Position numbers and translations under genes: made by a program. A stretch of 64,000 bases of DNA from a virus: IMG/VR virus record IMGVR_UViG_3300047550_006186, one strand, 5' to 3'. Under the pieces are notes generated by a model, which was given only the letters and a program-made list of their open reading frames with translations, did no database searches and was not told the origin of the DNA. This document shows positions 1,109 through 17,017 of the stretch, piece by piece. Every line of letters begins with the position of its first letter. Positions within the stretch are counted from its first letter, which is position 1.

Positions 1109-1145
1109 GCAAATATTTAAAAAGTATCGCTATACCTAATCTGAT

Positions 1146-1198
1146 GTGATTATTGACAAAAATAAGGATTGACACACCTGCAGAAAATGTTAGGATGC
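1146..1198 (+). promoter_or_regulatory. Sigma70-like promoter(s) upstream of the RlpA-like gene
   Basis: Two TTGACA hexamers (1146, 1170); the second is followed after 16 nt by TAGGAT; AAGGAG SD 8 nt before ATG 1219. Confidence 0.4.
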
Positions 1199-1218
1199 AA
1201 AAATTAAGGAGTCAGATA

Positions 1219-1569: not shown

Positions 1570-1717
1570 CATAATGTGCCCTGTTTCCTTGATCAAGGCA
1601 ATCTAAATCAATCCAAGCACGTCGCGTCTTCAGACCCATAGTAGTTCACATTCCAGGCAATGTGGGGTGTTTGACATTCAAGGAACAGTGTGTTATTGTT
1701 CATGTACAAAATATTTG

Positions 1718-2062
1718 ATGAAAAATGTAATGACATACAAGATGTTTTTGGATGACGTGCGTGAACCTTCTTGGGTACACAATGGCAATCCTGACGATTG
1801 GACCGTTTGCCGCAGCATGGAACAAGCTGTCAACGTGTTTGAGGACTTGGGTTGGCCACAGCTGATCAGCTTTGACCATGATCTGGGAAAAGATGTTCCC
1901 ACAGGCATGGATTTTGCACATTGGTTGGTCAACCAGGATCTGGACACCGGGACTATGCCTCTTGATTTTGAGTTCTGTGTTCACAGTGCAAACCCAGTGG
2001 GTGCTGCCAATATTCAAGGTCTGCTTGACAATTATCTGTGCAACAAAAAAGGTCAAAAATAA
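1718..2062 (+). CDS. Hypothetical protein (start uncertain; 1718/1730/1742)
   Basis: ORF 1667..2062; conserved-looking FLDDVREP...ISFDHDLG...DFAHWLV segments; no clear SD. Confidence 0.35.
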   Translation: MKNVMTYKMFLDDVREPSWVHNGNPDDWTVCRSMEQAVNVFEDLGWPQLISFDHDLGKDVPTGMDFAHWLVNQDLDTGTMPLDFEFCVHSANPVGAANIQGLLDNYLCNKKGQK

Positions 2063-3052
2063 ATGCACATGCCTTTTCAACTTCCACGTACTTTTTGTGG
2101 AGTAGCCAACTATACAAATCAACCATATGTGGTGGTGGGGGCACCCACAGACAGTGCCACCACTTTCCGCAGCGGCAGCAGGATGGGACCTGGCGCCATT
2201 CGTGATGCCAGTCTCATGCTGTGTGATGGCGAGCATGAATGGTTTCCTGTCAGTTTTGACCAAATGGTGGGTGACGCTGGTGACATGGGAATTGTCAGTG
2301 GCAACGTGCAACAAGCATTGGCCACTATCCAGGATATGCACTCCACCTTTGTGCAGAACAACAAACATGTGGTAACACTGGGTGGAGATCACAGCATAAC
2401 ACTGGCTTGTTTGCGCAGTCTATACAAAAAGCAGGGCACTATGGCAATGGTGCATTTTGATGCACATTGCGATACTTGGAGTGATCATTTTGGTGAAAAA
2501 TATGGCCATGGCACCTGGTTGCGCAATGCCATTGAAGAAGGCTTGGTTGACCCCAGGAAATGCGTGAGTGTGGGTGTCCGCAGTCCTGCAGAAAAATCTG
2601 TGAGAAAATGGTTGAGCGACCAAGGTGGCACAACCATCACTGCAAGACAGGCTGCGGGCTATACTGCAATTACACTAAGTGACATTATTGCATATGCGTG
2701 TACACATAATACACCCACTTACCTTAGTTTGGACATTGATTGTTTGGATCCAGCTTTTGCTCCAGGCACTGGCACACCTGAAATTGGTGGCTTGAGCTCC
2801 TTGTTTGTAAGTGCTATTATAGACCATTTAACACAAGTCAAATGGTGCGGTATGGATTTGGTTGAAGTAGCACCTGCATATGATCATAGCCAAATAACTG
2901 CATTGGCTGGAGCTACCTTTGTCTGGCAATATATTAGTATGCAAATTTTTCAAAATCAGAAAAAAATCAATTCAACAGTCAACTCGAAACAGATCAATCA
3001 AGAGCGTATTCAATTGTTGCCTGATTGGGTGAAAAATATGATCACATTGTGA
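2063..3052 (+). CDS. speB: Agmatinase (ureohydrolase/arginase family)
   Basis: Mn-binding ureohydrolase motifs GGDHSIT, DAHCDTW, SLDIDCLDPAFAPGTGTPEIGGLS; 329 aa. Confidence 0.8.
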   Translation: MHMPFQLPRTFCGVANYTNQPYVVVGAPTDSATTFRSGSRMGPGAIRDASLMLCDGEHEWFPVSFDQMVGDAGDMGIVSGNVQQALATIQDMHSTFVQNNKHVVTLGGDHSITLACLRSLYKKQGTMAMVHFDAHCDTWSDHFGEKYGHGTWLRNAIEEGLVDPRKCVSVGVRSPAEKSVRKWLSDQGGTTITARQAAGYTAITLSDIIAYACTHNTPTYLSLDIDCLDPAFAPGTGTPEIGGLSSLFVSAIIDHLTQVKWCGMDLVEVAPAYDHSQITALAGATFVWQYISMQIFQNQKKINSTVNSKQINQERIQLLPDWVKNMITL

Positions 3053-3074
3053 CTAGGCATAAGGATGAAACCAA

Positions 3075-3308
3075 GTGTTAACATATGAATTTGTGACTCT
3101 TTCACTATTATTTTTGACCTGTGTGATGTTGGTAGGATCAGTTGTTGGCGTCATATTGTGGCTGGCTTATCGTTTATTTTTTGCTGATCAAAGTCAGCGT
3201 TTGACAATTGTTGATAATGTTTTTATTTTCCTCACAATTGGTGTGATGGTCACTGCACTATCTTTTGGTGTGATGGTCACTGCACTATCTTTTGTGTTGG
3301 CCCATTGA
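3075..3308 (+). CDS. Small hydrophobic protein containing a 27-bp tandem duplication
   Basis: 77 aa, two TM-like segments; 3' end carries direct repeat ggtgtgatggtcactgcactatctttt x2 (VMVTALSFGVMVTALSF). Confidence 0.3.
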   Translation: MLTYEFVTLSLLFLTCVMLVGSVVGVILWLAYRLFFADQSQRLTIVDNVFIFLTIGVMVTALSFGVMVTALSFVLAH

Positions 3309-3329
3309 GCTAATATGTCAAAAAAATGG

Positions 3330-3357
3330 TTGACAATCTCAGCAACCATGCTATATT
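3330..3357 (+). promoter_or_regulatory. Sigma70-like promoter TTGACA-N16-TGcTATATT
   Basis: TTGACA 3330-3335, extended -10 TGCTATATT 3349-3357; followed by repeated GTGACATA / TTGACATGA half-sites and an 8-bp inverted repeat ttatgtca...tgacataa (3474-3498) ahead of rIIA. Confidence 0.5.
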
Positions 3358-3549
3358 GGTGACATAGAGCAAGGAATAGTTGACATGAGACTGGGTGACA
3401 AGCTCAAGCAGAGCATTGCAGATGCAGAACGAGACGCCCTGGGCGTGTGAACAATTGAAAAAAAATATTGTGTTATGTCATTTAATGAGTGACATAAGAC
3501 AATTTTATCATATTATGCATCTGTATAATACAGAGGAACTCTAGTAGTC

Positions 3550-5652
3550 ATGAAGATCAATCAAGTTGTGGAAGACGTTGAGCGCGGCAGTGTCACACAG
3601 GAACGGGGCTTTAGTATTCAGGCCAATGCTAGGGCTTTCCAGATTCTCAGCAGCAACCTGTATTCTGACAAGATCACAGCAGTGATCCGTGAGCTCAGCT
3701 GTAATGCACTGGACAGTCATGTGGCTGCCGGCAAGACAGGTACACCTTTTGATGTTCATCTGCCCAATGCCCTGGAACCCTATTTCAGTGTGCAGGATTA
3801 TGGACTGGGACTCAGCCATGATCAGGTCATGAGCATCTATACAACCTACTTTGAAAGCACCAAGACCAACACCAACGAACTGATTGGTGGCCTGGGCCTG
3901 GGCAGCAAGAGCCCATTCAGTTACACCAGCAGCTTTGATGTTGTGAGTGTTCACAATGGTGTTTCTCGTAGCTATGCCATGTTCATCAACGAGGCTGGCA
4001 AGCCCAGTGTGGCATTCATGGGCGAGACACCCACTGATGCCCCCAATGGGGTCAAGGTCAGCATGCCTGTCAAGAGCACTGATTTTCAGGGCTTTCAGGA
4101 AAAGGCTGCACGAGTGTTCAAGTGGTTCAGCCACCGCCCAGTTGTGAGTGGCAGCAGCAGCTTTGTGATTCCTGAACTCAAGATCAATTGTGATATCCAG
4201 GGCCAGGGTTGGCGCCTGCAGGACGTGAGTTTTGATCGCTACTCAAGGCACCAGGCAATGGCCCTCATGGGCAATGTGGCCTATCCGCTCAATGCTGCTG
4301 TGATCAACACCAAGTTCCAGCAACTGCTTGCGTGGCCAATTATTATTGACTTTGCTATTGGCGAACTTGATATCAGCGCCAGCCGCGAAGACCTCAGCTA
4401 TGATCCAGTGACTGTGCAGGTTATTGAAACCAAGCTTGGTCAGATCATCAAGGAATTGGAGAAGCGCATCCAGGACAAGTTCAAGAATGCTGCTACACTG
4501 TGGGAAGCACGTCTGCTGTTGAAAAAGATGACCTCTGATCGAACCCTGAACGATATCCTGTATGTGATGGAGAGAGGTGGCTTCAGGGTCATGTGGAAGG
4601 GCGAGGAGGTCAGCCACCATCACATCAATTGGCACAAAATGTTTCTGGATGTTGATACTGATCCTCATCCGCCAGTTTATGACGTGAGTACTTTCAGCCG
4701 TGCTCGCTATTGTAGAGCTATTGAACCCACAGACAAAGTTGTGTTCATCCTCAAGGATGTGAGTGATACAAGCGCTCGATGCAAGCTGGCCTATTACAAT
4801 ACCCAGAAGCGAGCTTTTATGATTGAAGCTGCCATTGGCAATGACGCCACCAAGTGTCCTCAGGTTGCTCGTCTTCTCAAGCACATTGGTGATCCGCCCA
4901 CCATCCTGGGGAGCAGCCTCTCCAAGGCTCCTCGCAAGAGCATGAAGTTCAAGGGAATTGTTTGGACTGGCAACAGCAGGACATGGCAGCCTCGCAAGAG
5001 CGATAACTGGACTGGAGAGAAGGAGCTCCTCAGTAGCCAGGGTGGTTATTATGTGACCATCAGTGGTTTGGATCCAGTTTACATTGTGAGTGCCAAGGAG
5101 GAAAAGCAGCTGAACCTCAATGATATTGTCCACAGTGCCCAGGCATTGGGCATCCTTGCCAAGACAGATCAGGTTTGGGGCATCAACAAGACCAACAGCC
5201 GTCTGATCAAGGATGAACCCAAGTGGATCAATGTGTATGAGTTCGTGCAGAAGAAAGTGCTTGAGCTGATCAGCAATGGCAACACTGCTGACCTGGTTCA
5301 TGCTCGTGAACAGTATGAATTGATCAACACCAAGTTCTACACCAATCATGATGTGTGGACTCGTATGTTTGGCAATCATGACAACAGCTTGGGCAAGTTT
5401 GTGCGGGCTTGGAAGAATGCTGCGGTGGCAGGCAGCAAGATGGACCTGCGGGCATTGCGCACACTTGTCACAGTTTATGGAGTCGACCTGGAGGGGCGCA
5501 AGACTGTCAAAACAGAGAGCTTGATTGATATGTGGAGTCAGGCCGTCAAGGACTATCCCATGCTGGTCAAGTTTGAGCGTGATAGTAGCGGAGATATCTT
5601 TTGGCCACTGCTGGTTGATTACGTGAATTTTGTTGACATTACCAAGAAGTAA
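3550..5652 (+). CDS. rIIA: rIIA-like protein with N-terminal GHKL (HATPase_c) ATPase domain
   Basis: 700 aa; GHKL N-box ELSCNALDSH and G-rich loop GGLGLGSKSPF; size and position immediately upstream of an unmistakable rIIB homolog. Confidence 0.8.
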   Translation: MKINQVVEDVERGSVTQERGFSIQANARAFQILSSNLYSDKITAVIRELSCNALDSHVAAGKTGTPFDVHLPNALEPYFSVQDYGLGLSHDQVMSIYTTYFESTKTNTNELIGGLGLGSKSPFSYTSSFDVVSVHNGVSRSYAMFINEAGKPSVAFMGETPTDAPNGVKVSMPVKSTDFQGFQEKAARVFKWFSHRPVVSGSSSFVIPELKINCDIQGQGWRLQDVSFDRYSRHQAMALMGNVAYPLNAAVINTKFQQLLAWPIIIDFAIGELDISASREDLSYDPVTVQVIETKLGQIIKELEKRIQDKFKNAATLWEARLLLKKMTSDRTLNDILYVMERGGFRVMWKGEEVSHHHINWHKMFLDVDTDPHPPVYDVSTFSRARYCRAIEPTDKVVFILKDVSDTSARCKLAYYNTQKRAFMIEAAIGNDATKCPQVARLLKHIGDPPTILGSSLSKAPRKSMKFKGIVWTGNSRTWQPRKSDNWTGEKELLSSQGGYYVTISGLDPVYIVSAKEEKQLNLNDIVHSAQALGILAKTDQVWGINKTNSRLIKDEPKWINVYEFVQKKVLELISNGNTADLVHAREQYELINTKFYTNHDVWTRMFGNHDNSLGKFVRAWKNAAVAGSKMDLRALRTLVTVYGVDLEGRKTVKTESLIDMWSQAVKDYPMLVKFERDSSGDIFWPLLVDYVNFVDITKK

Positions 5653-5693
5653 GTTATATTATTATCAGCCAAAAACACAGGAGAAATTGGCAA

Positions 5694-7082
5694 ATGACTA
5701 TTCCGTATATTGTTACCAAGGATAGCGTGACCGTCATGTATAACGGTGTGACCACCACCGTCCGAGACGGTATGATCAACTACGCCAGCCTACGCGAAGC
5801 AATTCGCAACAAGGATTGGGATAGCATTCCCAATCTACTCAACCCTGCCCGTGCAGTTGAATCTTTTGGCAATGGTGCCATTGAGGTTCGTGACGGAGAG
5901 GTCTACTACCAGGGCGAAATCATGCGCAACGGGCTAACCCGTCGCATCCTGGAAATGGTGGGAGAGGGCTTTGACGCTGATCCGCTAACCAAGTTTCTAG
6001 GCAAGCTCATGGACAATCCCAGCAAAACTGCTGTGGATGAATTGTATTCTTGGCTTGAAGGCACCAACCTGCCCATCACAGAAGATGGTTGCTTTATGGC
6101 CTACAAGAAGGTGGGTGAAGATTATCTGGATTTCTATACTGGCAAGGTTCTCAACAAGCCTGCAGGGTTCATGACGGATGCGGATCTGGAATACATCAAG
6201 AACACACAGGGTGTGGTGAGTGTGGAAGTCACGGATGGTGTGACCACAGTCAGCATGCCACGCAACAAGGTTGATGACAACCGTGACCGCACCTGCAGCC
6301 AGGGCCTGCATTTCTGCAGCCTCAGTTACCTGCCCCACTATCATGGTGGACGTGGTCGCGTGCTGCTGGTCAAGGTTGATCCTGCAGATGTGGTGAGCAT
6401 TCCCAGCGATTACGACAATGCCAAGGGCCGTGCATGGCGATACCAGATTGTGGGCGAGCACACAGATGGTGAAACTCGTGAAGCCTACGCTACTCCTGTT
6501 GCCACACCTGATGGCAAGCCCACCTATGGACGCCAGTTTCTCACAGAGGATGTCAACACCCTGGTGCTGGGTGTGAACTTTGGCACCGAAGATCGCGCAA
6601 CCCTGGTGCGTGATATGATCGCAGATTGCAGTCACCAAGTAGGCACCAGCCGCACTGGAGAACAGGGTCGGGATGATGGTTTTGATGATGCCTGGAACAA
6701 GGCAGATGCAAACCTCAGCCGGTTTACTGGCAGCAACATGCGTGAGGCTGTGGAATATGCACAGGCATATTTTGAAGGCTACGACAAGTGCAATGGTTTT
6801 GCACCCCAGGTGCAGGTAAACAACACAGAGGCTCAAGATCAGGCCAATGTGTATTCATATGAAACCGTTGAGCAGCGTGATGAGATTGTCCGAGTGCTGA
6901 GCATGCCCATCAACAAGAATGGTGCTCGTCATGGATATGACAATGGCTATGACGATGGCCAGCAAGATGCTGAAAGTGACAAGCGAAATGGCCGATCCTT
7001 CAACCTAGAAGCTGCCATTCCAGGTGGCAAGAACTACCGAGACGGTTATATCAAAGCATATGTACTCCACTACTGCTGGTGA
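5694..7082 (+). CDS. rIIB: rIIB-like protein
   Basis: Strong similarity to T4 rIIB C-terminal core: ITEDGCFMAYKKV..., RTCSQGLHFCSLSYLPHY, RVLLVKVDPADVVSIPSDYDNAKGRAWRYQIV (T4: TQTCSRGLHVCSKSYIRHF...VKVHPRDVVSIPIDYNDAKMRTCQYEVV). Confidence 0.85.
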   Translation: MTIPYIVTKDSVTVMYNGVTTTVRDGMINYASLREAIRNKDWDSIPNLLNPARAVESFGNGAIEVRDGEVYYQGEIMRNGLTRRILEMVGEGFDADPLTKFLGKLMDNPSKTAVDELYSWLEGTNLPITEDGCFMAYKKVGEDYLDFYTGKVLNKPAGFMTDADLEYIKNTQGVVSVEVTDGVTTVSMPRNKVDDNRDRTCSQGLHFCSLSYLPHYHGGRGRVLLVKVDPADVVSIPSDYDNAKGRAWRYQIVGEHTDGETREAYATPVATPDGKPTYGRQFLTEDVNTLVLGVNFGTEDRATLVRDMIADCSHQVGTSRTGEQGRDDGFDDAWNKADANLSRFTGSNMREAVEYAQAYFEGYDKCNGFAPQVQVNNTEAQDQANVYSYETVEQRDEIVRVLSMPINKNGARHGYDNGYDDGQQDAESDKRNGRSFNLEAAIPGGKNYRDGYIKAYVLHYCW

Positions 7083-7138
7083 CCCAACTCCAATAACTGG
7101 GCGGGCCTAAAAACCTGCCCTTTTTCATATAAAAGGAG

Positions 7139-7696
7139 ATGAAACTGTTTGTATTAGAATTTCTGGCCTTTGGTGCCTGGGGATTTTGGTTGTTGACTCT
7201 AGGCGGTGCGGTGCTCATGAGTGAGCTTTTGGACAAGGATGCACCAGGTTGGGCCATTATCCTGGCTATTGTGACAGTGGTTATCCTGGCTGTGTTTGGT
7301 GGTATCAATCCCATCCAGTGGATTCTACACAATCCTTGGGAAACTGTGCTGGCCCTAGTTGGTTATTTTGCAGTAGGTGCAATATGGAGCCTGATCAAAT
7401 GGTATTTTTTCCTGCTGGGCGTTCGCCGCCACATACAAGATATGCGCAGAGAGCATCCAGACTGGGTCGACAAGGATGTTGTCAACCTACTCAGATGTGC
7501 TGGTGTGTGGGGTGAATTTCCTCCGCAGGTCAGAGACAACAAAAGCCGAGTGATCGGATGGATGGCACTGTGGCCAGCCAGCATGGTGTGGACTGTGATC
7601 AACGATCCTGTTCGCCGAGCTTGTGAGGAGATCTACAACCGACTGGGCGGGGTTTATCAGGCCATCAGCAACCGAGTTTTTCGCGATTTCAAATAA
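7139..7696 (+). CDS. Multi-pass membrane protein, unknown function
   Basis: 185 aa with 3-4 hydrophobic helices; GGAG-like SD (aaaaggagatg). Confidence 0.5.
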   Translation: MKLFVLEFLAFGAWGFWLLTLGGAVLMSELLDKDAPGWAIILAIVTVVILAVFGGINPIQWILHNPWETVLALVGYFAVGAIWSLIKWYFFLLGVRRHIQDMRREHPDWVDKDVVNLLRCAGVWGEFPPQVRDNKSRVIGWMALWPASMVWTVINDPVRRACEEIYNRLGGVYQAISNRVFRDFK

Positions 7697-7721
7697 CCAA
7701 AATCAGCAAGATGTCAACAAC

Positions 7722-7755
7722 AGGTGGTGAATCAAGTTCACCACCTTTTTTCATG
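7722..7755 (+). terminator. Rho-independent terminator
   Basis: aggtggtgaa-tcaag-ttcaccacct stem followed by TTTTTTC. Confidence 0.5.
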
Positions 7756-8079
7756 GCCAGTCCACACCCAAAATCTCTATGCTCAAAATAGTGTAGTCAT
7801 CGCCAATTTTGGCAACCACTTGTTCCATGAGATTTTGATGACTGTTCAAAATAAACACTCTTGTTGATTGTTGCTGTTGGGGAGTGACTATTCTAATCAC
7901 ATAATAGAGCATGTACAATCTCCCTATGACATGCAATGTTGACTATTTATCAAAAACAATTATCAGCATGGATAACTATATGTGTCCAGAGGATTTGACA
8001 TGTATCGTCCATGTCAAAATTAGGAGGAGATTGTATTGAATAATTTCATTCATTTCACAAATAATCTACTGAGATTAAA

Positions 8080-8117
8080 TATCTCAAGTGCAGCAATGCA
8101 CTTGAGATATTTTTTTT
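8080..8117 (+). terminator. Strong hairpin + T8 run immediately upstream of the DnaE-like start codon
   Basis: atctcaagtgca-gcaa-tgcacttgagat (12-bp perfect stem) + TTTTTTTT, ending 8 nt before ATG 8126. Confidence 0.5.
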
Positions 8118-8125
8118 GAGGCACC

Positions 8126-9925
8126 ATGATTGAACTGAATGACCCCACTGTAATTGCACATACTGACTCACAAGCATTGAACGTTTTGTTGGCAAAAATC
8201 CAAAGACCCATTCCTGATGAATCCAAATATTTGGAACGACTGGAGCAAGAGCTCAAAATAATAGATGAACAAAACTTCAGTCCACATTTTTTGAGAGTGT
8301 TGGAAGTTTTGGACCTTACCAAAGACATACCACACATCACTAGAGGCAGTGCAGGCAGTTCACTTGTTTGTTATCTACTAGGCATAACAGATGTTGATCC
8401 AGTCAAATATGACATTCCATTGGCTAGATTTTTGAACCCCCTGCGTGATGATTTGCCCGACATTGACATAGATTTTGGTCAAAAATTTCACAAAGAAGTA
8501 TTGGAACGTATCTATCGCCACTGGCCAGGTAGAGCTGCCCGCCTCAGCAACTACGTGAAATATCGTGAAAAAAGTGCCCAAAAAGAAGCATTGAAGAGAG
8601 TGTGTGGCATCAAGGGCAAAGCTGCCAACCAACACAAGCCAGAACACCTAGTGCCCAAACACAAACACAAGGAATGGAAAAATTTATCAGAAAGGTTGTT
8701 GGGCAAAAAGAAATGTATCAGCAAGCATCCTGGCGGTGTGATTGTTTTTGACCAACCGCCTGCCAAAAGTTTGTTGTTACAAAAAGACACCCAAATCTTG
8801 CTGGACAAATATGAGTGTGAAGATCTTGCGCATTTGAAAATCGACGTGCTCAGCAACAGAGGATTGAGTGTGCTGTGGGATTGTAGTGGTCAAGGTCCGT
8901 TTGAATACAACCATGAATGCGATCAGACCCTTGCCATGCTGGCAGCAGGCAACAGTTTTGGGATCATCCAAGGAGAATCTCCCGTGATGCGGCGAACACT
9001 TCGCGCTCTCAAACCTCAAACGGTGGATGATCTCACACTTGCCACAGCATTGATTCGTCCTGCTGCCTTGACTGGTAGACAAAAGGGTGTGTTTTTTAGA
9101 GAATGGATTGGACACAATAAACAGCCTGGTGCCCTCAAACACAAGGATGGATTGGTATTTGATGAAGATGCAATTGATTTGATCTGCAAGGTATTGGATG
9201 TGGATGAGTTTGAGGCTGACATGTATCGCCGCGGATTCGTCAAGAAAAATGAAGAGATGATGTTTCAATTTTTGGAGAAGATTGGCAACCATCCACGTAG
9301 AGAAGAGATAATGTATCTGCTCAAAAACATGGATGGTTTTGGACTATGCAAAGCCCACAGTGTGAATCTGGGTAGGTTGGTATATGCTCAAGCTTGGGAA
9401 AAACAGCACAATCCTCAAAAGTTTTGGTTGGCTGCTCTACAAAACGCATGCAGCATGTATAGACCCTGGGTGCATATTGAACACGCAAAATCAGCTGGCT
9501 GGCAAATACAGGGCAAGAAACGACCCTGGCTGGTCAAAAACAACATATTATACAATGAAAATTGGCAAGTTCCTTTGTTTGACAGCCATTGGGATCAATT
9601 GGCACACATGGGATTTTGGACACACAAGTCTTGGATACCAGGCACCTATTATCAACAAATGGGCACCACAGCAGCATTTTGTGGAATAATTGCTGCACAC
9701 AGAATTTATCATTGTGGCCAAGGAGAGTTTGTTACTTTTGCCACATTGGGCACAGGTGCTGGTGAATTTTTGGAAGTTGTTTTGCCAGGTATGATCAATG
9801 TCAAAAATACAGCTTTTGTGGAAGGCATGGGAGAAGTGGAAGTCAAAAACAACAACACTGTTATATATACTAGAACATTTGAAACATTGTCCACAAGAGA
9901 ACATGCTAAGCACCACGACAAGTGA
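8126..9925 (+). CDS. dnaE: Minimal DnaE-like (C-family) DNA polymerase catalytic core, lacking PHP and C-terminal accessory domains
   Basis: Matches Pol III alpha palm/fingers motifs: RGSAGSSLVCYLLGITDVDP (DnaE [20 protein letters not shown]), ARFLNPLRDDLPDIDIDF (ERFLNPERVSMPDFDVDF), KHPGGVIV, LKIDVLSNRGLSVL, DGFGLCKAHSVNLG; only 599 aa. Confidence 0.7.
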   Translation: MIELNDPTVIAHTDSQALNVLLAKIQRPIPDESKYLERLEQELKIIDEQNFSPHFLRVLEVLDLTKDIPHITRGSAGSSLVCYLLGITDVDPVKYDIPLARFLNPLRDDLPDIDIDFGQKFHKEVLERIYRHWPGRAARLSNYVKYREKSAQKEALKRVCGIKGKAANQHKPEHLVPKHKHKEWKNLSERLLGKKKCISKHPGGVIVFDQPPAKSLLLQKDTQILLDKYECEDLAHLKIDVLSNRGLSVLWDCSGQGPFEYNHECDQTLAMLAAGNSFGIIQGESPVMRRTLRALKPQTVDDLTLATALIRPAALTGRQKGVFFREWIGHNKQPGALKHKDGLVFDEDAIDLICKVLDVDEFEADMYRRGFVKKNEEMMFQFLEKIGNHPRREEIMYLLKNMDGFGLCKAHSVNLGRLVYAQAWEKQHNPQKFWLAALQNACSMYRPWVHIEHAKSAGWQIQGKKRPWLVKNNILYNENWQVPLFDSHWDQLAHMGFWTHKSWIPGTYYQQMGTTAAFCGIIAAHRIYHCGQGEFVTFATLGTGAGEFLEVVLPGMINVKNTAFVEGMGEVEVKNNNTVIYTRTFETLSTREHAKHHDK

Positions 9926-10020
9926 ACTACTGTTGGTTTTTAGGGCGTGGTAGTTCACTATGCGTTTCGCAGCAGCATATTTGAAAATTGGCTGAATTCG
10001 TATTTTGACATCAAAAAGAG

Positions 10021-10048
10021 TTGACTTGATTTAAATTTGCCATATTAT
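10021..10048 (+). promoter_or_regulatory. Sigma70-like promoter TTGACT-N16-TATTAT
   Basis: Upstream of ORF 10074; AAGGA SD. Confidence 0.4.
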
Positions 10049-10073
10049 GATCCTTGAAAGCAAGGACATATAG

Positions 10074-10277
10074 ATGTTATTCCGAGTTGATTATACCAGC
10101 TTTGCACGAGATCGCAATGGTGATTGGGACAGGCAGGAAGGCTGGTTCCTCACTGAGGGCAAGGACGAATCCAACGTCCTGAACTTTTATGCCAAGAACG
10201 GCAAGTTTCAAGGTCTCAGGGTCACACCCGCAAGTGATCAGGACAAGATCAATTACGGCGTACTTCCAACTGATTAA
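10074..10277 (+). CDS. Hypothetical small protein (67 aa)
   Basis: ORF with own promoter and SD. Confidence 0.45.
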   Translation: MLFRVDYTSFARDRNGDWDRQEGWFLTEGKDESNVLNFYAKNGKFQGLRVTPASDQDKINYGVLPTD

Positions 10278-10305
10278 GTCTTGATCCAATCCAAGGAGAA
10301 CAAGT

Positions 10306-10554
10306 ATGACATCAATTTTTTATGGGACGGTGGTGCCTGATAGGCTGCCTTCTGGCCAATTTCGTCGTTTGATGGAACATGAAGTTCCTTGCCATCAGGA
10401 AGATGGTGGGCAGGCCATGATTATAGAGCTGGGGTCTGGTGCTGAAGCAGAGATGTTTGTCAGGCTACAAAGCTGGGACACGCTGCGTGAACATCCGCAG
10501 ATGCAGATGTGGATTGGCAAGCGGATTAGCGTGACTGTGGAAGTATTGGATTAA
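10306..10554 (+). CDS. Hypothetical small protein (82 aa)
   Basis: AAGGAG SD 7 nt upstream of ATG. Confidence 0.45.
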   Translation: MTSIFYGTVVPDRLPSGQFRRLMEHEVPCHQEDGGQAMIIELGSGAEAEMFVRLQSWDTLREHPQMQMWIGKRISVTVEVLD

Positions 10555-10561
10555 ATTTTGG

Positions 10562-10589
10562 TTGACATTGTCTCAACATGTGTTATGTT
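10562..10589 (+). promoter_or_regulatory. Sigma70-like promoter TTGACA-N16-TGtTATGTT
   Basis: Same TTTTGGTTGACA context as the 12.5-14.5 kb promoter array. Confidence 0.5.
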
Positions 10590-10599
10590 GTGAGATAAA

Positions 10600-10824
10600 A
10601 TGAAAGAAATGCAAATGCCAAAAGATGCATTTAATGTTGGCGACCGAGTCAATGTGGTTCGAACCCGTCACGGATGGTATGACGGAAGCTTGCAGGCAAC
10701 CGTGGTTTCCAGGCATCAACGAGACACAGGCACTTTTAGCTATATGGTTAGGGATCTGGATGGTGCCGTGCATGAGGTCAATCATACACGCGACATGTAT
10801 AAGTCTTTGGGCAACAACAGATGA
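10600..10824 (+). CDS. Hypothetical small protein (74 aa)
   Basis: ATG 11 nt downstream of promoter-proximal leader. Confidence 0.4.
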   Translation: MKEMQMPKDAFNVGDRVNVVRTRHGWYDGSLQATVVSRHQRDTGTFSYMVRDLDGAVHEVNHTRDMYKSLGNNR

Positions 10825-10889
10825 GCTTTTTGTGGTTGACATCACCAACGTCTGTGCTATAGAGCGCTTACAAAGCAAGGAATATTAAA

Positions 10890-11603
10890 ATGGAATTTGA
10901 TGGTGCAATGCCAGGATTGCCAAAGTGGCCCCAGATGCGTGTTTGGGGGCCCAGCATCACTCCCAAGCAGGCACAGGAGATCATCATCCGCACCGATCAT
11001 TTCTGGCAGGGCGGTGGCGGCAACGATCATGATTTCCAGCGGCGGCTGTGTGCTGCTGTTGACTTCCCCTACATGGAATATGGCGATCCAGACACAGACT
11101 GGAATGCCTACTACGAGGGTACGGAGCGGTTCCGTACCAGCATTGGATACGTCAACACAGAATACGTCCGCAATGGTTGGATCAGCAACTCATTCATCTT
11201 TGGCCCTAGTGGCTGGTGTTGGCCTGATGGAACAATTCGCTTTGTCCACAATGTGGGTAAGTGGCCTTCTGTGGAGGAAATCCTGGAAGATTGGCAGGCG
11301 ATTGCCAAAGCATGGCCCTTCCTAGACCTTGATGCCTGTTTGATGAGCGGCGAAGGCAGTGAGGACAATATCAAGCCCGTTGCGATTATCCAGGTCAAGG
11401 ATGGCATTGCCACCGCACATGATCCTGACACGTATGAATTTCTGTCAAGGTTTGGTCAAGTAAGTGACAATTTTGAGCTGCCAGACCTAGGTACAGCGGT
11501 GCGCAGTATCCTGATGAGTTCTACAAATCGTGAACAGCGTTGGACCATAAATGAGGTCAAGGAAATGGTCACCCAGGTTCGCAACAACCTGTCACAGTCT
11601 TAA
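10890..11603 (+). CDS. Hypothetical protein (237 aa)
   Basis: Long ORF, SD-like aaggaatatt upstream. Confidence 0.5.
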   Translation: MEFDGAMPGLPKWPQMRVWGPSITPKQAQEIIIRTDHFWQGGGGNDHDFQRRLCAAVDFPYMEYGDPDTDWNAYYEGTERFRTSIGYVNTEYVRNGWISNSFIFGPSGWCWPDGTIRFVHNVGKWPSVEEILEDWQAIAKAWPFLDLDACLMSGEGSEDNIKPVAIIQVKDGIATAHDPDTYEFLSRFGQVSDNFELPDLGTAVRSILMSSTNREQRWTINEVKEMVTQVRNNLSQS

Positions 11604-11883
11604 TATAACACCACACCCAAAAATTCAGATGTCAAGCAAGGAAGTATAACATGACAACGTGGGCTCTAGTGCTGATCCTCTACACAGGATTTAACTATCA
11701 AATGACCAACGTGCCAGGCTTTGCCACAGAAGCAGTTTGCGTGAGTGAGGGCAAAAAGTGGCAAGAACGTAGGCGTTCCACACATACCTATCACTGCGTG
11801 GAAGTCCAAGGCAATAGCAAGAACTGATTGAGATTTTTGGCGTTATCCCAACGTCAATTTTACACAACATTCTGACAAGGAAT

Positions 11884-12282
11884 ATGCAAATGAAGTTTCG
11901 CAACAAGATGCTGGCTCTTCCCATCCTGGCCCTTCTGGGTCTGGCAGGGTGCGATCGCACGGACGCTGACGTGGCCAGCTACAACATCAGCAAGGCGGCT
12001 GACAACTTCGAGATCAACCGCCGCATCGTGTTCATCAATACCTTCACCAACGACTACGTGCTGGTGATCGAGGGTCTGTGCAGCCTGGGCAACAGTGACA
12101 CCAACCTGCGCATGAGCGTGACCTGCAAGACCGGCCCCAGCACCTTCAAGAAGCATCACCTGGGCCTGGGTGCCAACGTGACCTTCGTGAGCGAGCAGTT
12201 GGATGCGGCCAAGGCCAGCACCTACCACTACCGCGTGGTGTTCAAGCCCAGCACGCTCATGCCCAACATCGAGATCCGATAA
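11884..12282 (+). CDS. Lipoprotein (high-GC, probable xenolog)
   Basis: Signal peptide + lipobox LLGLAGC; about 60% GC versus about 43% flanks. Confidence 0.55.
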   Translation: MQMKFRNKMLALPILALLGLAGCDRTDADVASYNISKAADNFEINRRIVFINTFTNDYVLVIEGLCSLGNSDTNLRMSVTCKTGPSTFKKHHLGLGANVTFVSEQLDAAKASTYHYRVVFKPSTLMPNIEIR

Positions 12283-12304
12283 GGTCAGACAGGAGACACA
12301 TCAC

Positions 12305-12541
12305 ATGCAACTAGGTAATATCCTCACAGGTATCCAAATCCTGCAGAAATATTATGACAATCCTAACAGATACCATATGTGTGCTGAACATGATGAAATC
12401 TATCTCACTGCAACCAACAAGCCTCTGGCCCAAAGCGATCTCCAACTCATGTTGGAATTGGGTTGGTTTCAGGAAGATGGTACTCAAGAAGATGATCCTG
12501 AAAACTACTGTGTAGACGAGCCTTGGAAGGCATTCGTCTAA
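12305..12541 (+). CDS. Hypothetical small protein (78 aa)
   Basis: AGGAG SD then ATG 12305; 3' end overlaps a terminator-like hairpin. Confidence 0.45.
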   Translation: MQLGNILTGIQILQKYYDNPNRYHMCAEHDEIYLTATNKPLAQSDLQLMLELGWFQEDGTQEDDPENYCVDEPWKAFV

Positions 12542-12548
12542 ATTTTTG
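12521..12548 (+). terminator. Stem-loop + T-run immediately upstream of a promoter (PeSL-like arrangement)
   Basis: gacgagcc-ttggaa-ggcattcgtc then taaattttt. Confidence 0.4.
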
Positions 12549-12549
12549 G

Positions 12550-12585
12550 TTGACATTACGGGAACAACCTGCTATGTTGTTCCCG
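12550..12585 (+). promoter_or_regulatory. Sigma70-like promoter TTGACA-N17-TGcTATGTT with 10-bp perfect inverted repeat flanking the -10
   Basis: TTGACA 12550-12555; cgggaacaac (12559-12568) / gttgttcccg (12576-12585) palindrome encloses ctgctat. Confidence 0.55.
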
Positions 12586-12604
12586 AACGCAAAGGGATAG
12601 GTTG

Positions 12605-12805
12605 ATGTTTCTAGTTATGCGAACGCACTCTCCTAGCACAGATAAGCGAGGTGGGCTTTGGCAAGTTGTTAGCAGGCCTTTTGGATCTCGTCAGGCGGCC
12701 CAAAATTGGTGTGAATTCATGCAGAAAGAATACCAGGAAGATCATCCACGAGGGTCGCATAAGTTTTTTGTGATTGAAACTCTTGGGCCCAATAATGGAG
12801 AATGA
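12605..12805 (+). CDS. Hypothetical small protein (66 aa)
   Basis: AAGGGA SD; 3' end carries the repeat agttttttgtgattgaaactcttgg also found at 13783. Confidence 0.45.
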   Translation: MFLVMRTHSPSTDKRGGLWQVVSRPFGSRQAAQNWCEFMQKEYQEDHPRGSHKFFVIETLGPNNGE

Positions 12806-12814
12806 TTTTTTTGG

Positions 12815-12842
12815 TTGACAGCCATACTAAACCTGCTATAAT
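12815..12842 (+). promoter_or_regulatory. Sigma70-like promoter TTGACA-N16-TGcTATAAT
   Basis: Perfect consensus hexamers plus extended -10; promoter + 5'UTR (about 50 bp) duplicated at 13303. Confidence 0.6.
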
Positions 12843-12869
12843 GGGCACACCAAGCAAGGAACACTGAAC

Positions 12870-13289
12870 ATGAGCAACAAGCTGACGGTTGGCGACGTAT
12901 TTGAAGCCTGCAATGGCATGCGGGTGTATGGTATGATCCCCAAGCATTTTGCCTACGCCAACAGGGCTAACGATCCCACGCCCGCTCATTGTGAGCTGAC
13001 GGTGGGAGAAATCAAGAGTCGCGACAGCCATACCTTGGACCTTGGTTACCTCAAGGGCCTGTATGTGGTGGAGCATGCTGCCTCAAAGGGCGGTGGCACT
13101 GGCCATGGGCCTCATGACATCTACCCGGATGGTTGGCACATTCGTGCCCGCAAGCTCAAGGCTGATAGCAGCTACGACCCTCATGGTGTTGAGATTGATT
13201 TCTACCAGAGCGGTTCCTTCACGGTGGTGAACCCGACTGTGCCTGTAGTGGGCAAGCTTCACCGCAAGGTGGATTTTGTGGCTGAGTAG
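12870..13289 (+). CDS. Hypothetical protein (139 aa)
   Basis: ATG 28 nt after -10; ORF track 12870..13289. Confidence 0.5.
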   Translation: MSNKLTVGDVFEACNGMRVYGMIPKHFAYANRANDPTPAHCELTVGEIKSRDSHTLDLGYLKGLYVVEHAASKGGGTGHGPHDIYPDGWHIRARKLKADSSYDPHGVEIDFYQSGSFTVVNPTVPVVGKLHRKVDFVAE

Positions 13290-13302
13290 CCAAAAATTCT
13301 GG

Positions 13303-13330
13303 TTGACATTCCCTCCAAACCTGCTATAAT
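13303..13330 (+). promoter_or_regulatory. Sigma70-like promoter TTGACA-N16-TGcTATAAT (duplicate of 12815 promoter/UTR)
   Basis: aacctgctataatgggcacaccaagcaaggaa(c/t)actgaacatgagcaa shared with 12828-12877. Confidence 0.6.
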
Positions 13331-13357
13331 GGGCACACCAAGCAAGGAATACTGAAC

Positions 13358-13798
13358 ATGAGCAAACCCAACCCCACCAAGCGGATTGCCACCAAGCATA
13401 TTGATAAGGTGGTGATGATCAGGGACGAGAGCGATGAGCGGGAGCTGCTGGCGTTTGAGAACGCCGATGCAGCCAGCCTCTTTGAGGGCTGCCTCAACGA
13501 CAGCGGCTATGGTAGTGCCTATGGTGGCTATGAGGTAGAGTGGCCCAGCATGGATGATGTGCGCAAGACAAGGGGCTATGAGGACTGGCTCAAGAACGGA
13601 CAGCGTGTGATCAGCCTCGCTTACATGAACTACGTGAGCGAGCGCATGGACGCTGACGAAGAGTGCGATGCCAGCTACCTGCTCAACATGGAAATGGTCA
13701 AGGACGGCTATGCGCCAATGAGCCTCGCGGACTGGGAAACGCTGTATCCAGAGGAGTGCGAGGACACTGACGAAGCTGAAGAAGTTTTTTGTGATTGA
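13358..13798 (+). CDS. Hypothetical acidic protein (146 aa)
   Basis: ORF track; D/E-rich C-terminus. Confidence 0.5.
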   Translation: MSKPNPTKRIATKHIDKVVMIRDESDERELLAFENADAASLFEGCLNDSGYGSAYGGYEVEWPSMDDVRKTRGYEDWLKNGQRVISLAYMNYVSERMDADEECDASYLLNMEMVKDGYAPMSLADWETLYPEECEDTDEAEEVFCD

Positions 13799-13834
13799 AA
13801 CTCTTGGCAACAAGAATTAGTCATAAATTATTGG

Positions 13835-13862
13835 TTGACACTATGGCCTATCATGCTATACT
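13835..13862 (+). promoter_or_regulatory. Sigma70-like promoter TTGACA-N16-TGcTATACT
   Basis: Consensus hexamers, TTATTGGTTGACA context. Confidence 0.55.
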
Positions 13863-13888
13863 GTCCTTGTTGAATAAGGAGCAGGACA

Positions 13889-14164
13889 ATGGCTCGCAAA
13901 ACGATTGATGTGTCAATGATGGTGGACAGGGTGAACAAGGCCTTGGCTACTTCAACCTGCCCGCCCGACTCGAGGATGGGTATGATCACAGTGTTGGAAA
14001 TCATGCTGCAAGAAGCAAGTTGCTACAAGGGATATCGGCCCTTGCATGAAGATGAAGTGCCTCAGGGACATCTGCCAGCTATCAGGATGGCTGAAGATGG
14101 TAGCATGTTGCCCTATCCAGAGAGGTTCGTCAACTGCGACGATACTCGTCGCAGGTATTTTTGA
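13889..14164 (+). CDS. Hypothetical small protein (91 aa)
   Basis: AGGAG SD (aaggagcaggacaatg). Confidence 0.45.
   Translation: MARKTIDVSMMVDRVNKALATSTCPPDSRMGMITVLEIMLQEASCYKGYRPLHEDEVPQGHLPAIRMAEDGSMLPYPERFVNCDDTRRRYF
14128..14160 (+). terminator. Stem-loop + T-run upstream of next promoter
   Basis: gcgacga-tac-tcgtcgc then aggtattttt. Confidence 0.4.
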
Positions 14165-14175
14165 GGCAAAACTGG

Positions 14176-14203
14176 TTGACATTTGATCAGCATGTGCTAT
14201 ATT
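14176..14203 (+). promoter_or_regulatory. Sigma70-like promoter TTGACA-N16-TGtgcTATATT
   Basis: Consensus hexamers. Confidence 0.55.
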
Positions 14204-14229
14204 GGCCTTGTTGACCCAGGAGGCTAGCA

Positions 14230-14457
14230 ATGGCTGTGTTACCACATCACGTAGAGCTGAGAAATACTAGTTCAGTATTAGATCAGGCCCAGGAGTGGTG
14301 CCACAAGCAATGGCCCAACACGCACCAAGCAACTTGGTATAGTGGCCCAATCAAGGAACCTTTAACCAGACGCCTACAGCCTTCCAGGACCTGGTCCTTC
14401 CAATTCAAGGAGGATGCAGCAATGTTTGAATTGGCATGGATTACCTCCACCAATTAG
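14230..14457 (+). CDS. Hypothetical small protein (75 aa)
   Basis: GGAGG SD (caggaggctagcaatg). Confidence 0.4.
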   Translation: MAVLPHHVELRNTSSVLDQAQEWCHKQWPNTHQATWYSGPIKEPLTRRLQPSRTWSFQFKEDAAMFELAWITSTN

Positions 14458-14474
14458 ACTGGTTGATTTTTTGG

Positions 14475-14502
14475 TTGACATTTCTTCAGCCTGTGCTATA
14501 AG
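14475..14502 (+). promoter_or_regulatory. Sigma70-like promoter TTGACA-N16-TGtgcTATAAG
   Basis: Consensus -35, near-consensus -10. Confidence 0.55.
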
Positions 14503-14529
14503 TAGCATATGAAAAACAGGAGCGGTGTG

Positions 14530-14688
14530 ATGAGCAAGGGTGATAAGATCGTTGGTGTTGCGCCTCGTATCAGCCGTCGTGCGATCGAGCTGTTCCAGGA
14601 CAACCGTTTCAAGCCGCGTATTATCAAGAACAAGCGTGCCTACACTCGCAAGGGGCGCGGAGCTGAACGAGCTGGCAATGGAGACTGA
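14530..14688 (+). CDS. Small basic protein (52 aa, R/K-rich), GC-rich codons
   Basis: AGGAGCGG SD then ATG 14530; MSKGDKIVGVAPRISRRAIELFQDNRFKPRIIKNKRAYTRKGRGAERAGNGD; below ORF-track size cutoff. Confidence 0.35.
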   Translation: MSKGDKIVGVAPRISRRAIELFQDNRFKPRIIKNKRAYTRKGRGAERAGNGD

Positions 14689-14857
14689 TGACGACATTCG
14701 CGCACCATTTTCGTGGTGCGATCAGCAAAAGCTAGCTCATGCTGAGGCAATGGCAGAAAAGCTGTTGGATAGATACCCGCAGTTGGCAGAGATGTGGCTT
14801 GACAGTGCTGACCTAATTCTCAATCGTATCAACCCAACGGGATCCTCAATCGATTAA
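14678..14857 (+). CDS. Small acidic protein (59 aa), overlapping previous gene end
   Basis: METDDDIRAPFSWCDQQKLAHAEAMAEKLLDRYPQLAEMWLDSADLILNRINPTGSSID in frame of ORF 14540..14857. Confidence 0.3.
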   Translation: METDDDIRAPFSWCDQQKLAHAEAMAEKLLDRYPQLAEMWLDSADLILNRINPTGSSID

Positions 14858-15033
14858 GACCAACAATGGAGTTCGATTGTGCGGAGTTCAACTGCCTGTG
14901 GATTCACTATCCCACAGTGGTAGCGCGATGCAAAATCAGCGGAGGCTGCACTACCGTCGCTGATGACGCATTTTAAATAATGCTGTAACTGCGTCCAACG
15001 CATAGATATATGGAGACTAGATTGAGGTCTGAT

Positions 15034-15801
15034 ATGAGCAAGGTCATCGTTGAGCGTCCCCGGATCGGGGGCAAGCTGGTCCGCAAGGGGCGGCGCATCG
15101 ACGACGACCTCCAGGTTAGCCACGAGGGCATGCGTGCCCCCTACGTTCGCCACTACAACAACAAGGAGCTCAACGAGAACCTGGCACCACTGCTGCGCTT
15201 CCTGGACTCCCGGGTTGGCCGGCGGTGGGACGACGTTTACAGCGAGATCTGCAAGAACATCCGCCCCGACAGCACCGTGCAGCAGCACGTCCTGGTCCAC
15301 GTCAAACAATTCGTGAATACCCACGTCCGCCGCAACGGGGACGGAGAGCTCTGGGACTACGATGGCCGTCCCGGACCGCTCAGTAGTTGGTCCCGGTTCT
15401 ACGTCGATCCGGATAGCGGCATCCTCACGCGCAATCCCAATCGGCAGGGCTGGTCCGCCCAGCGACGCGAGTACCGCCGGGAAAAAGAAGCCGAGCGTTT
15501 GGCCATCGAGCGTCGGCTGCCGGACGGCACCGACGTGCGGAAGCACGGTGGCATTTGGTACGCTGGTGTGCGCAAGGAGGTCCCTGCCCCTGTGAAGCGC
15601 ACCAGGATCGCCGTCGACGGCAGCACCAGGGAATACCTCGAGGGTGGCGAGGTGTACGACTACTTCCTCGAGGTCCTCGTTCGCCACCCCCAGCTTCCCC
15701 GCAAGAGCTGGGGCAACGCGGTCACCGCCTCCCACTATTACGCTAGCAAGCGCCAGCTCAACAGCGCTGAGCTCCGGAGGCACGGCCTGGAGAACGATTG
15801 A
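15034..15801 (+). CDS. Hypothetical protein on a high-GC island (255 aa)
   Basis: About 62% GC; MSKVIVERPRIGGKLVRKGRR...; antisense ORFs here are GC artefacts. Confidence 0.5.
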   Translation: MSKVIVERPRIGGKLVRKGRRIDDDLQVSHEGMRAPYVRHYNNKELNENLAPLLRFLDSRVGRRWDDVYSEICKNIRPDSTVQQHVLVHVKQFVNTHVRRNGDGELWDYDGRPGPLSSWSRFYVDPDSGILTRNPNRQGWSAQRREYRREKEAERLAIERRLPDGTDVRKHGGIWYAGVRKEVPAPVKRTRIAVDGSTREYLEGGEVYDYFLEVLVRHPQLPRKSWGNAVTASHYYASKRQLNSAELRRHGLEND

Positions 15802-15814
15802 CATGCTGTGATGT

Positions 15815-15995
15815 GAACTATCACCCCCCCTCTAGGGCTGTAGCTGGCTGCTTGATCGTAGTGGCTGACAGCAGACCCCAATGAGTGAGAATACCTGTGA
15901 CCACATCCACAGGCGCAAGAGCCAGTTCCTTCCCCACATGATCTATATTCCACGGTTGATGTCCCCAGTTCTTGATGTTGATGGCTGCATATGAC
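15815..15995 (-). mobile_element. Solo right-end + 3' tnpB remnant of IS200/IS605-family element A
   Basis: gtgaactatcacc...ctagggctgtagctggctgcttgatcgtagtggctgaca...ccacaggcgc...tgatgtccccagtt matches RE/3' region of copies at 39711, 50165, 25004. Confidence 0.5.
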
Positions 15996-16063
15996 TGTTA
16001 TTCTTGTGTTTTTATTTTGTGATTTCTCAGGAACGATCTCTATAATGTTCCAGATAGTTCATT

Positions 16064-16654: not shown

Positions 16655-16675
16655 ACCTGCTCATAGCAGGTTCAC
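16633..16675. terminator. Bidirectional rho-independent terminator between convergent genes
   Basis: gtgaacctgct-cata-agcaggttcac then ttttctgtt; A-run on the other side. Confidence 0.6.
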
Positions 16676-16682
16676 TTTTCTG

Positions 16683-17009: not shown

Positions 17010-17017
17010 AGCTCTAT

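Follow-up and report, generated by a model that had tools for sequence, protein, structure and literature searches.

The 64,000-nucleotide stretch of viral DNA analyzed here (IMG/VR record IMGVR_UViG_3300047550_006186, one strand, 5' to 3'; hereafter the window) comes from a large phage related to T4. On its + strand lies a gene for a compact C-family (DnaE-type) DNA polymerase of 599 amino acids (aa), and the leader directly ahead of this gene holds a T4-type late-promoter-like box inside the 5' arm of a terminator-like hairpin. The features of the gene and its leader are given below; numbers prefixed with L are our labels for related loci and contigs, and the polymerase and its homologues are referred to as mini-DnaE.

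8074..8081, + strand: T4-type late-promoter-like box ATTAAATA, with its core TAAATA at 8076-8081, in the 5' arm of the hairpin; predicted transcription start at about 8087
8077..8112, + strand: hairpin of 16 bp with a GCAA loop (arms 8077-8092 and 8097-8112), which together with the T8 run resembles an intrinsic terminator
8110..8117, + strand: run of eight T (T8), ending 8 nt before the ATG
8118..8125, + strand: GAGGCACC, a weak Shine-Dalgarno sequence (GAGG, 8118-8121) overlapping a gene-specific GGCA(C) element (GGCA, 8120-8123)
8126..9925, + strand: compact C-family (DnaE-type) DNA polymerase gene, 599 aa, without a PHP domain (ATG at 8126, stop at 9925; assigned from Pfam, PHROG 405 and homologues)
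8213..9442, + strand: palm, shortened thumb and fingers core (aa 30-439), corresponding to E. coli DnaE 316-788 (hhalign, phmmer, Foldseek)
8459..8467, + strand: codons of D112 and D114 (PDIDIDF), the predicted first two catalytic aspartates, corresponding to E. coli D401 and D403 (hhalign alignment)
8843..8845, + strand: codon of D240 (LKIDVLS), the predicted third catalytic aspartate, corresponding to E. coli D555 (hhalign alignment)
9443..9922, + strand: C-terminal 160 aa, in which a short linker leads into an OB-fold barrel whose strands lie at about aa 508-588

A preliminary description of this locus had recognized the 599-aa open reading frame (ORF) and had warned that it might be a fragment of a larger gene broken by an assembly error. 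Instead, it is a complete and conserved gene running from the ATG at 8126 to the stop at 9925. An in-frame TGA at 8117-8119 lies two codons 5' of the ATG, so the ORF is not a piece of a longer gene; together with the identical 599-aa protein encoded on a second, independently assembled Logan contig, this upstream stop shows that the gene is complete and not an assembly fragment. Further contigs of this phage are present in SRR35181308, and ERR12320357_5106 (271 kb) and Ga0643544_0000118 (137 kb) are among its close relatives. PHROG 405 ("DNA polymerase") matches the protein at 8e-70. A protein search recovered more than 100 homologue clusters, each of 554-604 aa and 44-98% identical to the 599-aa protein, on contigs reaching 492 kb, and start, stop and length are alike in more than 100 homologues from independent assemblies. 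Similarly, a scan of IMG/VR confirmed at least 586 stretches that encode a relative of the polymerase. Megablast of positions 7000-11000 against the phage collection gave no match, and the sole record of that collection matching more than 80% of the protein's length was the complete 484-kb genome of an uncultured phage, LR756508.1 (31.6% identity). The compact polymerase is a member of a large family that is conserved among uncultured jumbo and huge phages related to T4.

The relationship to bacterial replicative polymerases is supported by several comparisons. A profile of 59 homologues aligned aa 30-439 with E. coli DnaE 316-788 (hhalign probability 99.9, E = 1.8e-31), the Pfam model PF07733 (DNA_pol3_alpha) matched aa 32-242 (2e-40; 139.4 bits against a gathering cut-off of 23.9) and PF17657 (DNA_pol3_finger) matched aa 266-386 (8e-14; 51.7 bits against a cut-off of 22), while phmmer matched the protein to residues 384-844 of Taq Pol III alpha. 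Pfam and hhalign thus bear out the palm and fingers of Pol III alpha that had been recognized at first reading. Structure modeling, which the preliminary description had proposed, yielded an AlphaFold model with a pLDDT of 81 and a pTM of 0.80 (low confidence at residues 312-347), and its top Foldseek matches are the solved DnaE/PolC structures 7pu7, 2hpi, 3e0d, 5fkv and 3f2b (E = 2e-21 to 2e-13). The catalytic aspartates had been sought in the motif DIDIDF; D112 and D114 do lie there, but the third, D240, is located outside it. All three align with their E. coli counterparts and, along with the motifs RGSAGS and RFxNPxR, are invariant in the 59 homologues, so that the pseudo-polymerase lacking these aspartates, against which the preliminary description had cautioned, is not what the alignment reveals. 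The sequence thus predicts a Pol-beta-like palm with its three catalytic acidic residues present.

Outside this core the protein is strongly reduced. Only about 30 residues precede the palm and the alignment begins at DnaE 316, which means that the PHP domain is absent, and Pfam has no PHP match in the 599-aa protein. Likewise, the profile alignment ends at DnaE 788, and the beta-binding/HhH and tau-binding regions are therefore absent; tblastn with the E. coli DnaE PHP segment and with residues 791-1160 found no match in the window or in the whole of LR756508.1. A clamp-binding C-terminal tail is neither visible nor conserved on the mini-DnaE proteins; a gp43-like tail (…DLFSF) is found on the family-B polymerases (PolB) of related phages. 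The absence of PHP, beta-clamp-binding and tau-binding regions agrees with the preliminary description, which was mistaken in adding the OB region to the losses, as the C-terminal domain of the 599-aa protein is an OB fold. This C-terminal domain occurs solely in proteins of 538-706 aa, and within the phage collection it matches LR756508.1 alone and none of the cultured phages there. The NCBIfam models for DnaE, DnaE2 and PolC score at best 167.8 bits against a curated cut-off of 939, far below every cut-off, which identifies a divergent C-family core rather than a member of a bacterial orthologue group. From these features we infer that the gene encodes an active, proofreading-less compact C-family polymerase.

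Whether such an enzyme is accessory to, or a replacement for, the family-B polymerase expected of a T4-type phage had been left undecided, and a search for a gp43-like PolB had been recommended. We used T4 gp43 as a tblastn query against the window and the fetched DNA of related loci. Neither the 64-kb window nor the adjoining 10 kb on its left yielded a gp43-type PolB, but one is present on the same contig as mini-DnaE in three relatives. In L014 it lies 8 kb downstream of the mini-DnaE gene and in L052 it is a full-length, divergent neighbor, with YGDTDS present in both; in LR756508.1 it occurs together with gp44-, gp41- and UvsX-like genes. These three relatives span 32-58% identity; L014 stands for the clade at 58% identity, which of the clades sampled is the nearest neighbor of the window's own. 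In about 20 further loci, the mini-DnaE gene has a gp41-like helicase or UvsX gene beside it. The PolB ORF of LR756508.1 (259348-262416) has an intein-like insertion inside its KILxNSxYG motif and ends before YGDTDS, which suggests that this PolB contains an intein and may be split.

Because those relatives whose genomes can be read far enough also encode a gp43-type replicase, mini-DnaE is probably an accessory enzyme and not the replicase. For the window's own phage this status is an extrapolation, bracketed by relatives on both sides, since no PolB could be placed on a contig of its own clade: homologues of the L014 PolB, and the hits of an IMG/VR scan with a PolB alignment, have no contig in common with mini-DnaE of this clade, and the protein at the right end of the window gave no record by which to extend it. 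The sole hint of a link to a PolB comes from one metagenome, which yielded both the PolB contig 3300042473_001540 and the mini-DnaE contig 3300042473_001546.

Two competing views of the protein can be weighed against these data. The low NCBIfam score (168 bits against 939, below every curated DnaE, DnaE2 and PolC cut-off) and the low-confidence residues 312-347 of the model would fit an inactive pseudo-polymerase or a gene fragment from an assembly error. However, neither the catalytic triad nor the dNTP-binding motifs vary, the homologues of independent assemblies agree in start, stop and length, and the identical protein recurs on a second contig; we consider this view hardly credible, and it is already largely refuted. 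The other view, that the compact polymerase is the main replicase and has replaced the family-B enzyme, draws on the absence of PolB from the window and the 10 kb to its left, yet it is very unlikely given the PolB genes on the contigs of relatives as distant as 32% and as close as 58% identity, a protein without a proofreading domain, clamp-binding motif or tau-binding region, and a gene whose leader is of the late-promoter type.

The leader of the polymerase gene had been described as a 12-bp perfect hairpin with a T8 run that stops 8 nt short of the ATG. This hairpin does exist and is stronger than stated there: it comprises 16 pairs, five of which are G-C, and still has 14 when the A/T pairs that draw on the T run are discounted. 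Its RNA has a calculated stability of -28.2 kcal/mol compared to -11.7 +/- 2.8 kcal/mol for shuffled sequences (z = -5.95), and none of 200 shuffles was as stable. A stable, G+C-containing stem-loop directly followed by a U run has the sequence characteristics of an intrinsic terminator, and termination is predicted here. The terminator-like character noted earlier holds for the window, where T8 follows the stem-loop, but in its relatives the T run that confers it is not conserved. Hairpins do occur at the same place in L191, L087 and L006, where they start at the ATAT of the box and differ in the sequence of the inner stem. Across the window, a pattern scan found 19 terminator-like sites compared to 18 expected. 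Rfam, run over the whole window, matched only four tRNAs, with no match in 7700-8125.

The box in this leader had gone unnoticed. The T4 late promoter is TATAAATA at -13 to -6, with positions -13 and -12 varying among T4 relatives (PMC2988020); ATTAAATA matches it at six of eight positions, and the A at -13 is a known variant (PMC2988020). In an alignment of upstream sequences, the TAAATA box lies 25-58 nt ahead of the start codon of mini-DnaE genes, and its core is invariant in the seven closest distinct sequences. As a control set we used 58 distinct leaders of PolB genes from related phages. TAAATA occurs no more than 60 nt from the start in 56 of 68 distinct mini-DnaE leaders and in none of the 58 PolB leaders (Fisher p = 3e-24), and the box is therefore specific to mini-DnaE as compared to PolB leaders. 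The box is also over-represented in the window as a whole (41 found, 26.8 +/- 5.1 expected), often 5-30 nt before ORF starts, including those of mobile-element (transposase-type) and HNH genes. Mobile-element and HNH genes are late genes in T4.

Two further observations concern promoters elsewhere in the window. TAAATA is located exactly 5 nt before a start codon at 56010, 53130, 51386, 37321, 17020 and 1119 on the - strand and at 63073 and 31042 on the + strand; if transcription starts 6 nt past the box as in T4, these ORFs would give leaderless late mRNAs, although several of them are copies of mobile elements and so do not represent independent cases. On the + strand of positions 1-20000, near-consensus sigma-70 promoters with an extended -10 (TTGACA-16-TGnTATAAT) are abundant, with 54 found and 28.6 +/- 5.6 expected (for example at 12815, 13303, 3330, 5633, 13835 and 14176), and these are probably early promoters.

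The relative position of box and hairpin allows the leader RNA to be compared with and without its 5' end. The box (8076-8081) lies within the 5' arm (8077-8092), and an RNA that starts at 8087, without most of this arm, is not significantly structured (z = -0.96). With the 3' arm reaching only to 8112 and the GAGG at 8118-8121, the Shine-Dalgarno sequence and AUG are not sequestered in the window. About one third of the distant relatives do show pairing between the box-proximal segment and the Shine-Dalgarno/AUG region (for example ATATCTGCC...GGCAGATATG); this pairing reaches -8 kcal/mol or stronger in 20 of 60 distant leaders and exceeds that of shuffled sequences (p = 5e-5).

In addition to the box, the mini-DnaE leaders have a distinctive sequence next to the start codon. 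GGCA is present at -18 to -3 in 49 of 68 mini-DnaE leaders compared to 2 of 58 PolB leaders, and in the leaders of L015-L085 GGCA(C) is often doubled (…TAAGGCAAC…AGGCAG…ATG), in place of a canonical Shine-Dalgarno sequence. Just 23 of the 68 mini-DnaE leaders contain a canonical Shine-Dalgarno-like sequence, and other genes of the window use CAAGGA(G/A). The PolB leaders (L108-L187) have a feature of their own about 20-45 nt before the start, a short stem closed by an 8-nt loop, GCCNTAAN, which immediately precedes a GGAG Shine-Dalgarno sequence. Changes in this stem appear compensatory (TGCAA/TTGCA, TGCGA/TCGCA, TGTCA/TGACA), a perfect 4-bp stem is present in 22 of the 58 leaders, and the hairpin looks like the autogenous translational operator of T4 gp43.

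Upstream of the leader, the polymerase gene is preceded by the following features.

3550-5652, + strand: rIIA (PHROG 612 and 609, rIIA/rIIB)
5694-7082, + strand: rIIB (PHROG 612 and 609, rIIA/rIIB)
7139-7696, + strand: gene for a 185-aa protein, placed after rIIB
7722..7746, + strand: terminator-like hairpin closing the block of rIIA, rIIB and the 185-aa gene (pattern scan)
7751..7912, - strand: small conserved gene, 53 aa from an internal ATG, divergent from the polymerase gene (tblastn)

The order rIIA, rIIB, small divergent gene, polymerase gene is kept in L002 and L191, and the extra 185-aa gene after rIIB is found in the window and its duplicate contig L001. Homologues of the 53-aa gene were located by tblastn at the same position in L191, L006, L087, L002, L089 and L007, and in L191 and L002 it is a called gene.

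Taken together, these results are best explained, in our judgment with moderate confidence, by an active compact accessory polymerase of the C family whose late box is placed within a hairpin such that transcripts from upstream terminate and late transcripts escape. Transcripts arriving from the rII side would form the full 16-bp hairpin followed by U8, and then stop. Late transcripts would begin about 6 nt past the box, near 8087 and thus inside the stem; lacking the 5' arm, they could not make the terminator, and would be translated from the GAGGCAC site. As late transcripts alone would escape the terminator, the polymerase would be made late, possibly for gap filling, repair or recombination-dependent synthesis, and its expression would be set apart from that of the replicase. 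In the window, 13 nt separate the 3' strand of the hairpin from the AUG and U8 comes after that strand; for this reason the predicted block would act by termination rather than by covering the ribosome-binding site.

Several observations weigh against this explanation. The nearest co-directional upstream gene ends at its own terminator (7722-7746) and the divergent small gene intervenes, so there may be little read-through to stop. The box ATTAAATA departs from TATAAATA at both -13 and -12, and tblastn with T4 gp55 gave no match in the window or LR756508.1, in a search that is insensitive, as gp55 is too divergent to decide the matter. Among close relatives the T run is reduced to T5 in L087 and is missing from L191 and L006, and the predicted late transcript of L087 and L002 retains a complete hairpin with a T run of four or five. 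Pairing of the box with the ribosome-binding site is strong in only about one third of leaders, and compared to mismatched pairs it is barely better (p = 0.048). Finally, mini-DnaE proteins have no visible clamp-binding tail, and no PolB could be linked to this phage itself or to its clade (at least 65% identity).

The leader may instead be due to simpler or different regulation. If the hairpin and T8 were an ordinary intrinsic terminator or insulator of the upstream unit, the overlap with TAAATA would be incidental and the polymerase would be expressed by partial read-through or from another promoter. The pattern scan does score the hairpin as a terminator, terminators elsewhere in the window likewise lie right against the following gene (for example 7099-7120, before the gene starting at 7139), terminator-like sites are not enriched overall, and the T run is not conserved. 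Such a terminator would, however, leave unexplained a box that is invariant in close relatives, conserved across the family and absent from PolB leaders, as well as the recurrence of a hairpin beginning at the box's ATAT with other inner stems in L191, L087 and L006; moreover, the upstream block is already ended by the 7722-7746 terminator and the gene in between lies on the opposite strand. We regard this possibility as unlikely.

Translational control had also been suggested for this leader, and the hairpin and GGCA(C) could form an operator bound by a RegA-like repressor or by the polymerase itself, as for T4 gp43. T4 provides precedents in RegA and gp43 autoregulation (PMC3014915), and both the enrichment of GGCA over PolB leaders, often in two copies, and the scarcity of canonical Shine-Dalgarno-like sequences point in this direction. 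On the other hand, no candidate binding protein was identified, tblastn found no regA homologue in the window, LR756508.1 or related loci, the hairpin and GGCA are separate in the window, and the hairpin sequence is not conserved; we regard an operator as unlikely as well. Classical attenuation, likewise raised in the preliminary description, would involve translation of a 27-codon leader ORF (TTG 8036 to TGA 8119, with AGGAGG upstream) through the hairpin, controlling termination and coupled translation. This is the sole candidate leader ORF, and it has a strong Shine-Dalgarno sequence and a stop that overlaps the polymerase's GAGG; yet its start codon is TTG and no equivalent ORF exists in L087, L191, L006 or L007. 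We rejected leader-ORF attenuation because the ORF is not conserved, and attach almost no probability to it.

Returning to the late box within a terminator, a broader scenario is possible, which we offer tentatively and do not regard as probable. The T4-related huge-phage lineage may run two unrelated polymerases on separate schedules: a gp43-type replicase controlled by an operator, and a late, proofreading-free and apparently clamp-independent minimal C-family enzyme with an OB fold, which could serve late recombination-dependent synthesis, repair of gaps in concatemers before packaging, or as a deliberate mutator. GGCA would then be a new translational control element.

The remainder of the window and its left flank contain further genes of note. 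ClpS, HSP20 and dUTPase are encoded just left of the window. Auxiliary genes at 2063-3052, 22791-24206, 26987-28411, 37360-38286 and 56094-57500 encode an arginase, a nicotinamide phosphoribosyltransferase (NAMPT), a full-length RpoD-like sigma factor, an ADP-ribosylglycohydrolase and a saccharopine dehydrogenase. An 843-aa protein (58961-61492, + strand) matches the shoulder and repeat domains of the major vault protein and the SPFH/Band 7 family, which is unusual in a phage. Mobile elements are represented by TnpB/IS605-OrfB (Cas12f-like) genes and a serine-recombinase-type gene among 39727-40920, 50182-51375, 48676-49794 and 36708-37310 on the - strand and from about 63084 on the + strand. 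The full-length TnpB genes at 39727-40920 and 50182-51375 have a common upstream flank, …GCGGAAAGCCAGGCGCCTTTAGGCCCTGGATGG…, and TnpB copies are also present in the relative L191. A curli-type cluster (CHASE2-guanylate cyclase, PA14, FecR, curlin-repeat-like, CsgG and CsgF) is located just left of the window, at L192 10949-17240, and the same CHASE2/CsgG/CsgF cluster lies beside the mini-DnaE gene of a related 492-kb phage (L003 12454-19223). CsgG and CsgF are curli secretion genes.

C-family polymerases are regarded as the replicases of bacteria, where they work inside a large holoenzyme. A naturally minimal, single-chain version of about 600 aa that abounds in environmental huge phages would define the smallest working C-family core, and would be useful for studies of mechanism and evolution as well as for enzyme engineering. 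A further question is what need a phage equipped with a T4 replisome has of a second polymerase without proofreading. If the late timing is true, the enzyme would point to a dedicated late step of DNA synthesis or repair in huge-phage development, and a promoter inside a terminator would apply to transcription termination a classical regulatory trick of T4 translation.

That classical arrangement is known from the T4 genes e, soc, 49 and I-TevI, whose leaders form an inhibitory RNA hairpin; the stretch of DNA specifying the hairpin's 5' strand also contains a late promoter (PMC3014915). The mini-DnaE leader resembles it by analogy: a TATAAATA-type box is situated in the DNA of the 5' strand, and long early transcripts would fold where late ones could not. 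The 3' strand also covers the Shine-Dalgarno/AUG region in about a third of the distant homologues, as in the T4 genes. In the window, by contrast, this strand stops 13 nt short of the AUG, with U8 following, and the predicted block is termination.

Compared to bacterial DnaE1, DnaE2 and PolC, the 599-aa protein shares the fold of palm, thumb and fingers, the catalytic triad, the dNTP-binding motifs and the OB fold. It differs from them in the absence of the PHP, beta-binding/HhH and tau-binding regions, in its shortened thumb, in having about half their length, and in scores that fall below the NCBIfam cut-offs. Partial C-family cores are also present in other phages as PHP-less or split DnaE-like polymerases, namely PHROGs 11165, 21652, 12219 and 11127 and PB1-like Pseudomonas phages, all with low identity and none with the C-terminal domain. 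PHROG 11165 matches from its own position 36 and therefore also lacks a PHP domain, and by tblastn the PB1-like phages match only aa 1-104 of the 599-aa protein. In one marine jumbo phage cluster, PF07733 was reported in 52% of members (Weinheimer and Aylward, PMC9123017).

The closest published counterpart is the minimal, PHP-less Pol III alpha described alongside PolB in group 2.2 T4-related jumbo phages (Iyer 2021, Viruses 13:63, PMC7824862), for which an accessory role in one-strand synthesis or repair has been proposed, in phages that also carry sigma factors (PMC7824862). Our accessory reading of mini-DnaE agrees with that proposal (Iyer et al., 2021, PMC7824862). Both forms are phage-specific, comprise approximately the catalytic nucleotidyltransferase and a template-binding part without PHP or other Pol III modules, and belong to T4-related jumbo phages; for mini-DnaE, PolB accompanies it on the contigs of the relatives L014, L052 and LR756508.1. 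We liken mini-DnaE to the published form by its description, as among the tblastn matches listed for the 599-aa protein LR756508.1 is the sole jumbo phage and there is no cultured group 2.2 phage. In contrast to the published form, which is split into two proteins encoded far apart, the polymerase here is a single 599-aa chain, as are all listed homologues, and it keeps a C-terminal OB fold that the published form, as described, does not have; nor was a late-promoter leader described for the latter. Minimal forms of Pol III alpha that lack PHP and occur alongside PolB are thus already known from T4-related jumbo phages. The polymerase of the window differs from these in its single chain, its OB fold, its membership of a very large and conserved environmental family, its late-promoter-type leader and its gene-specific GGCA element.

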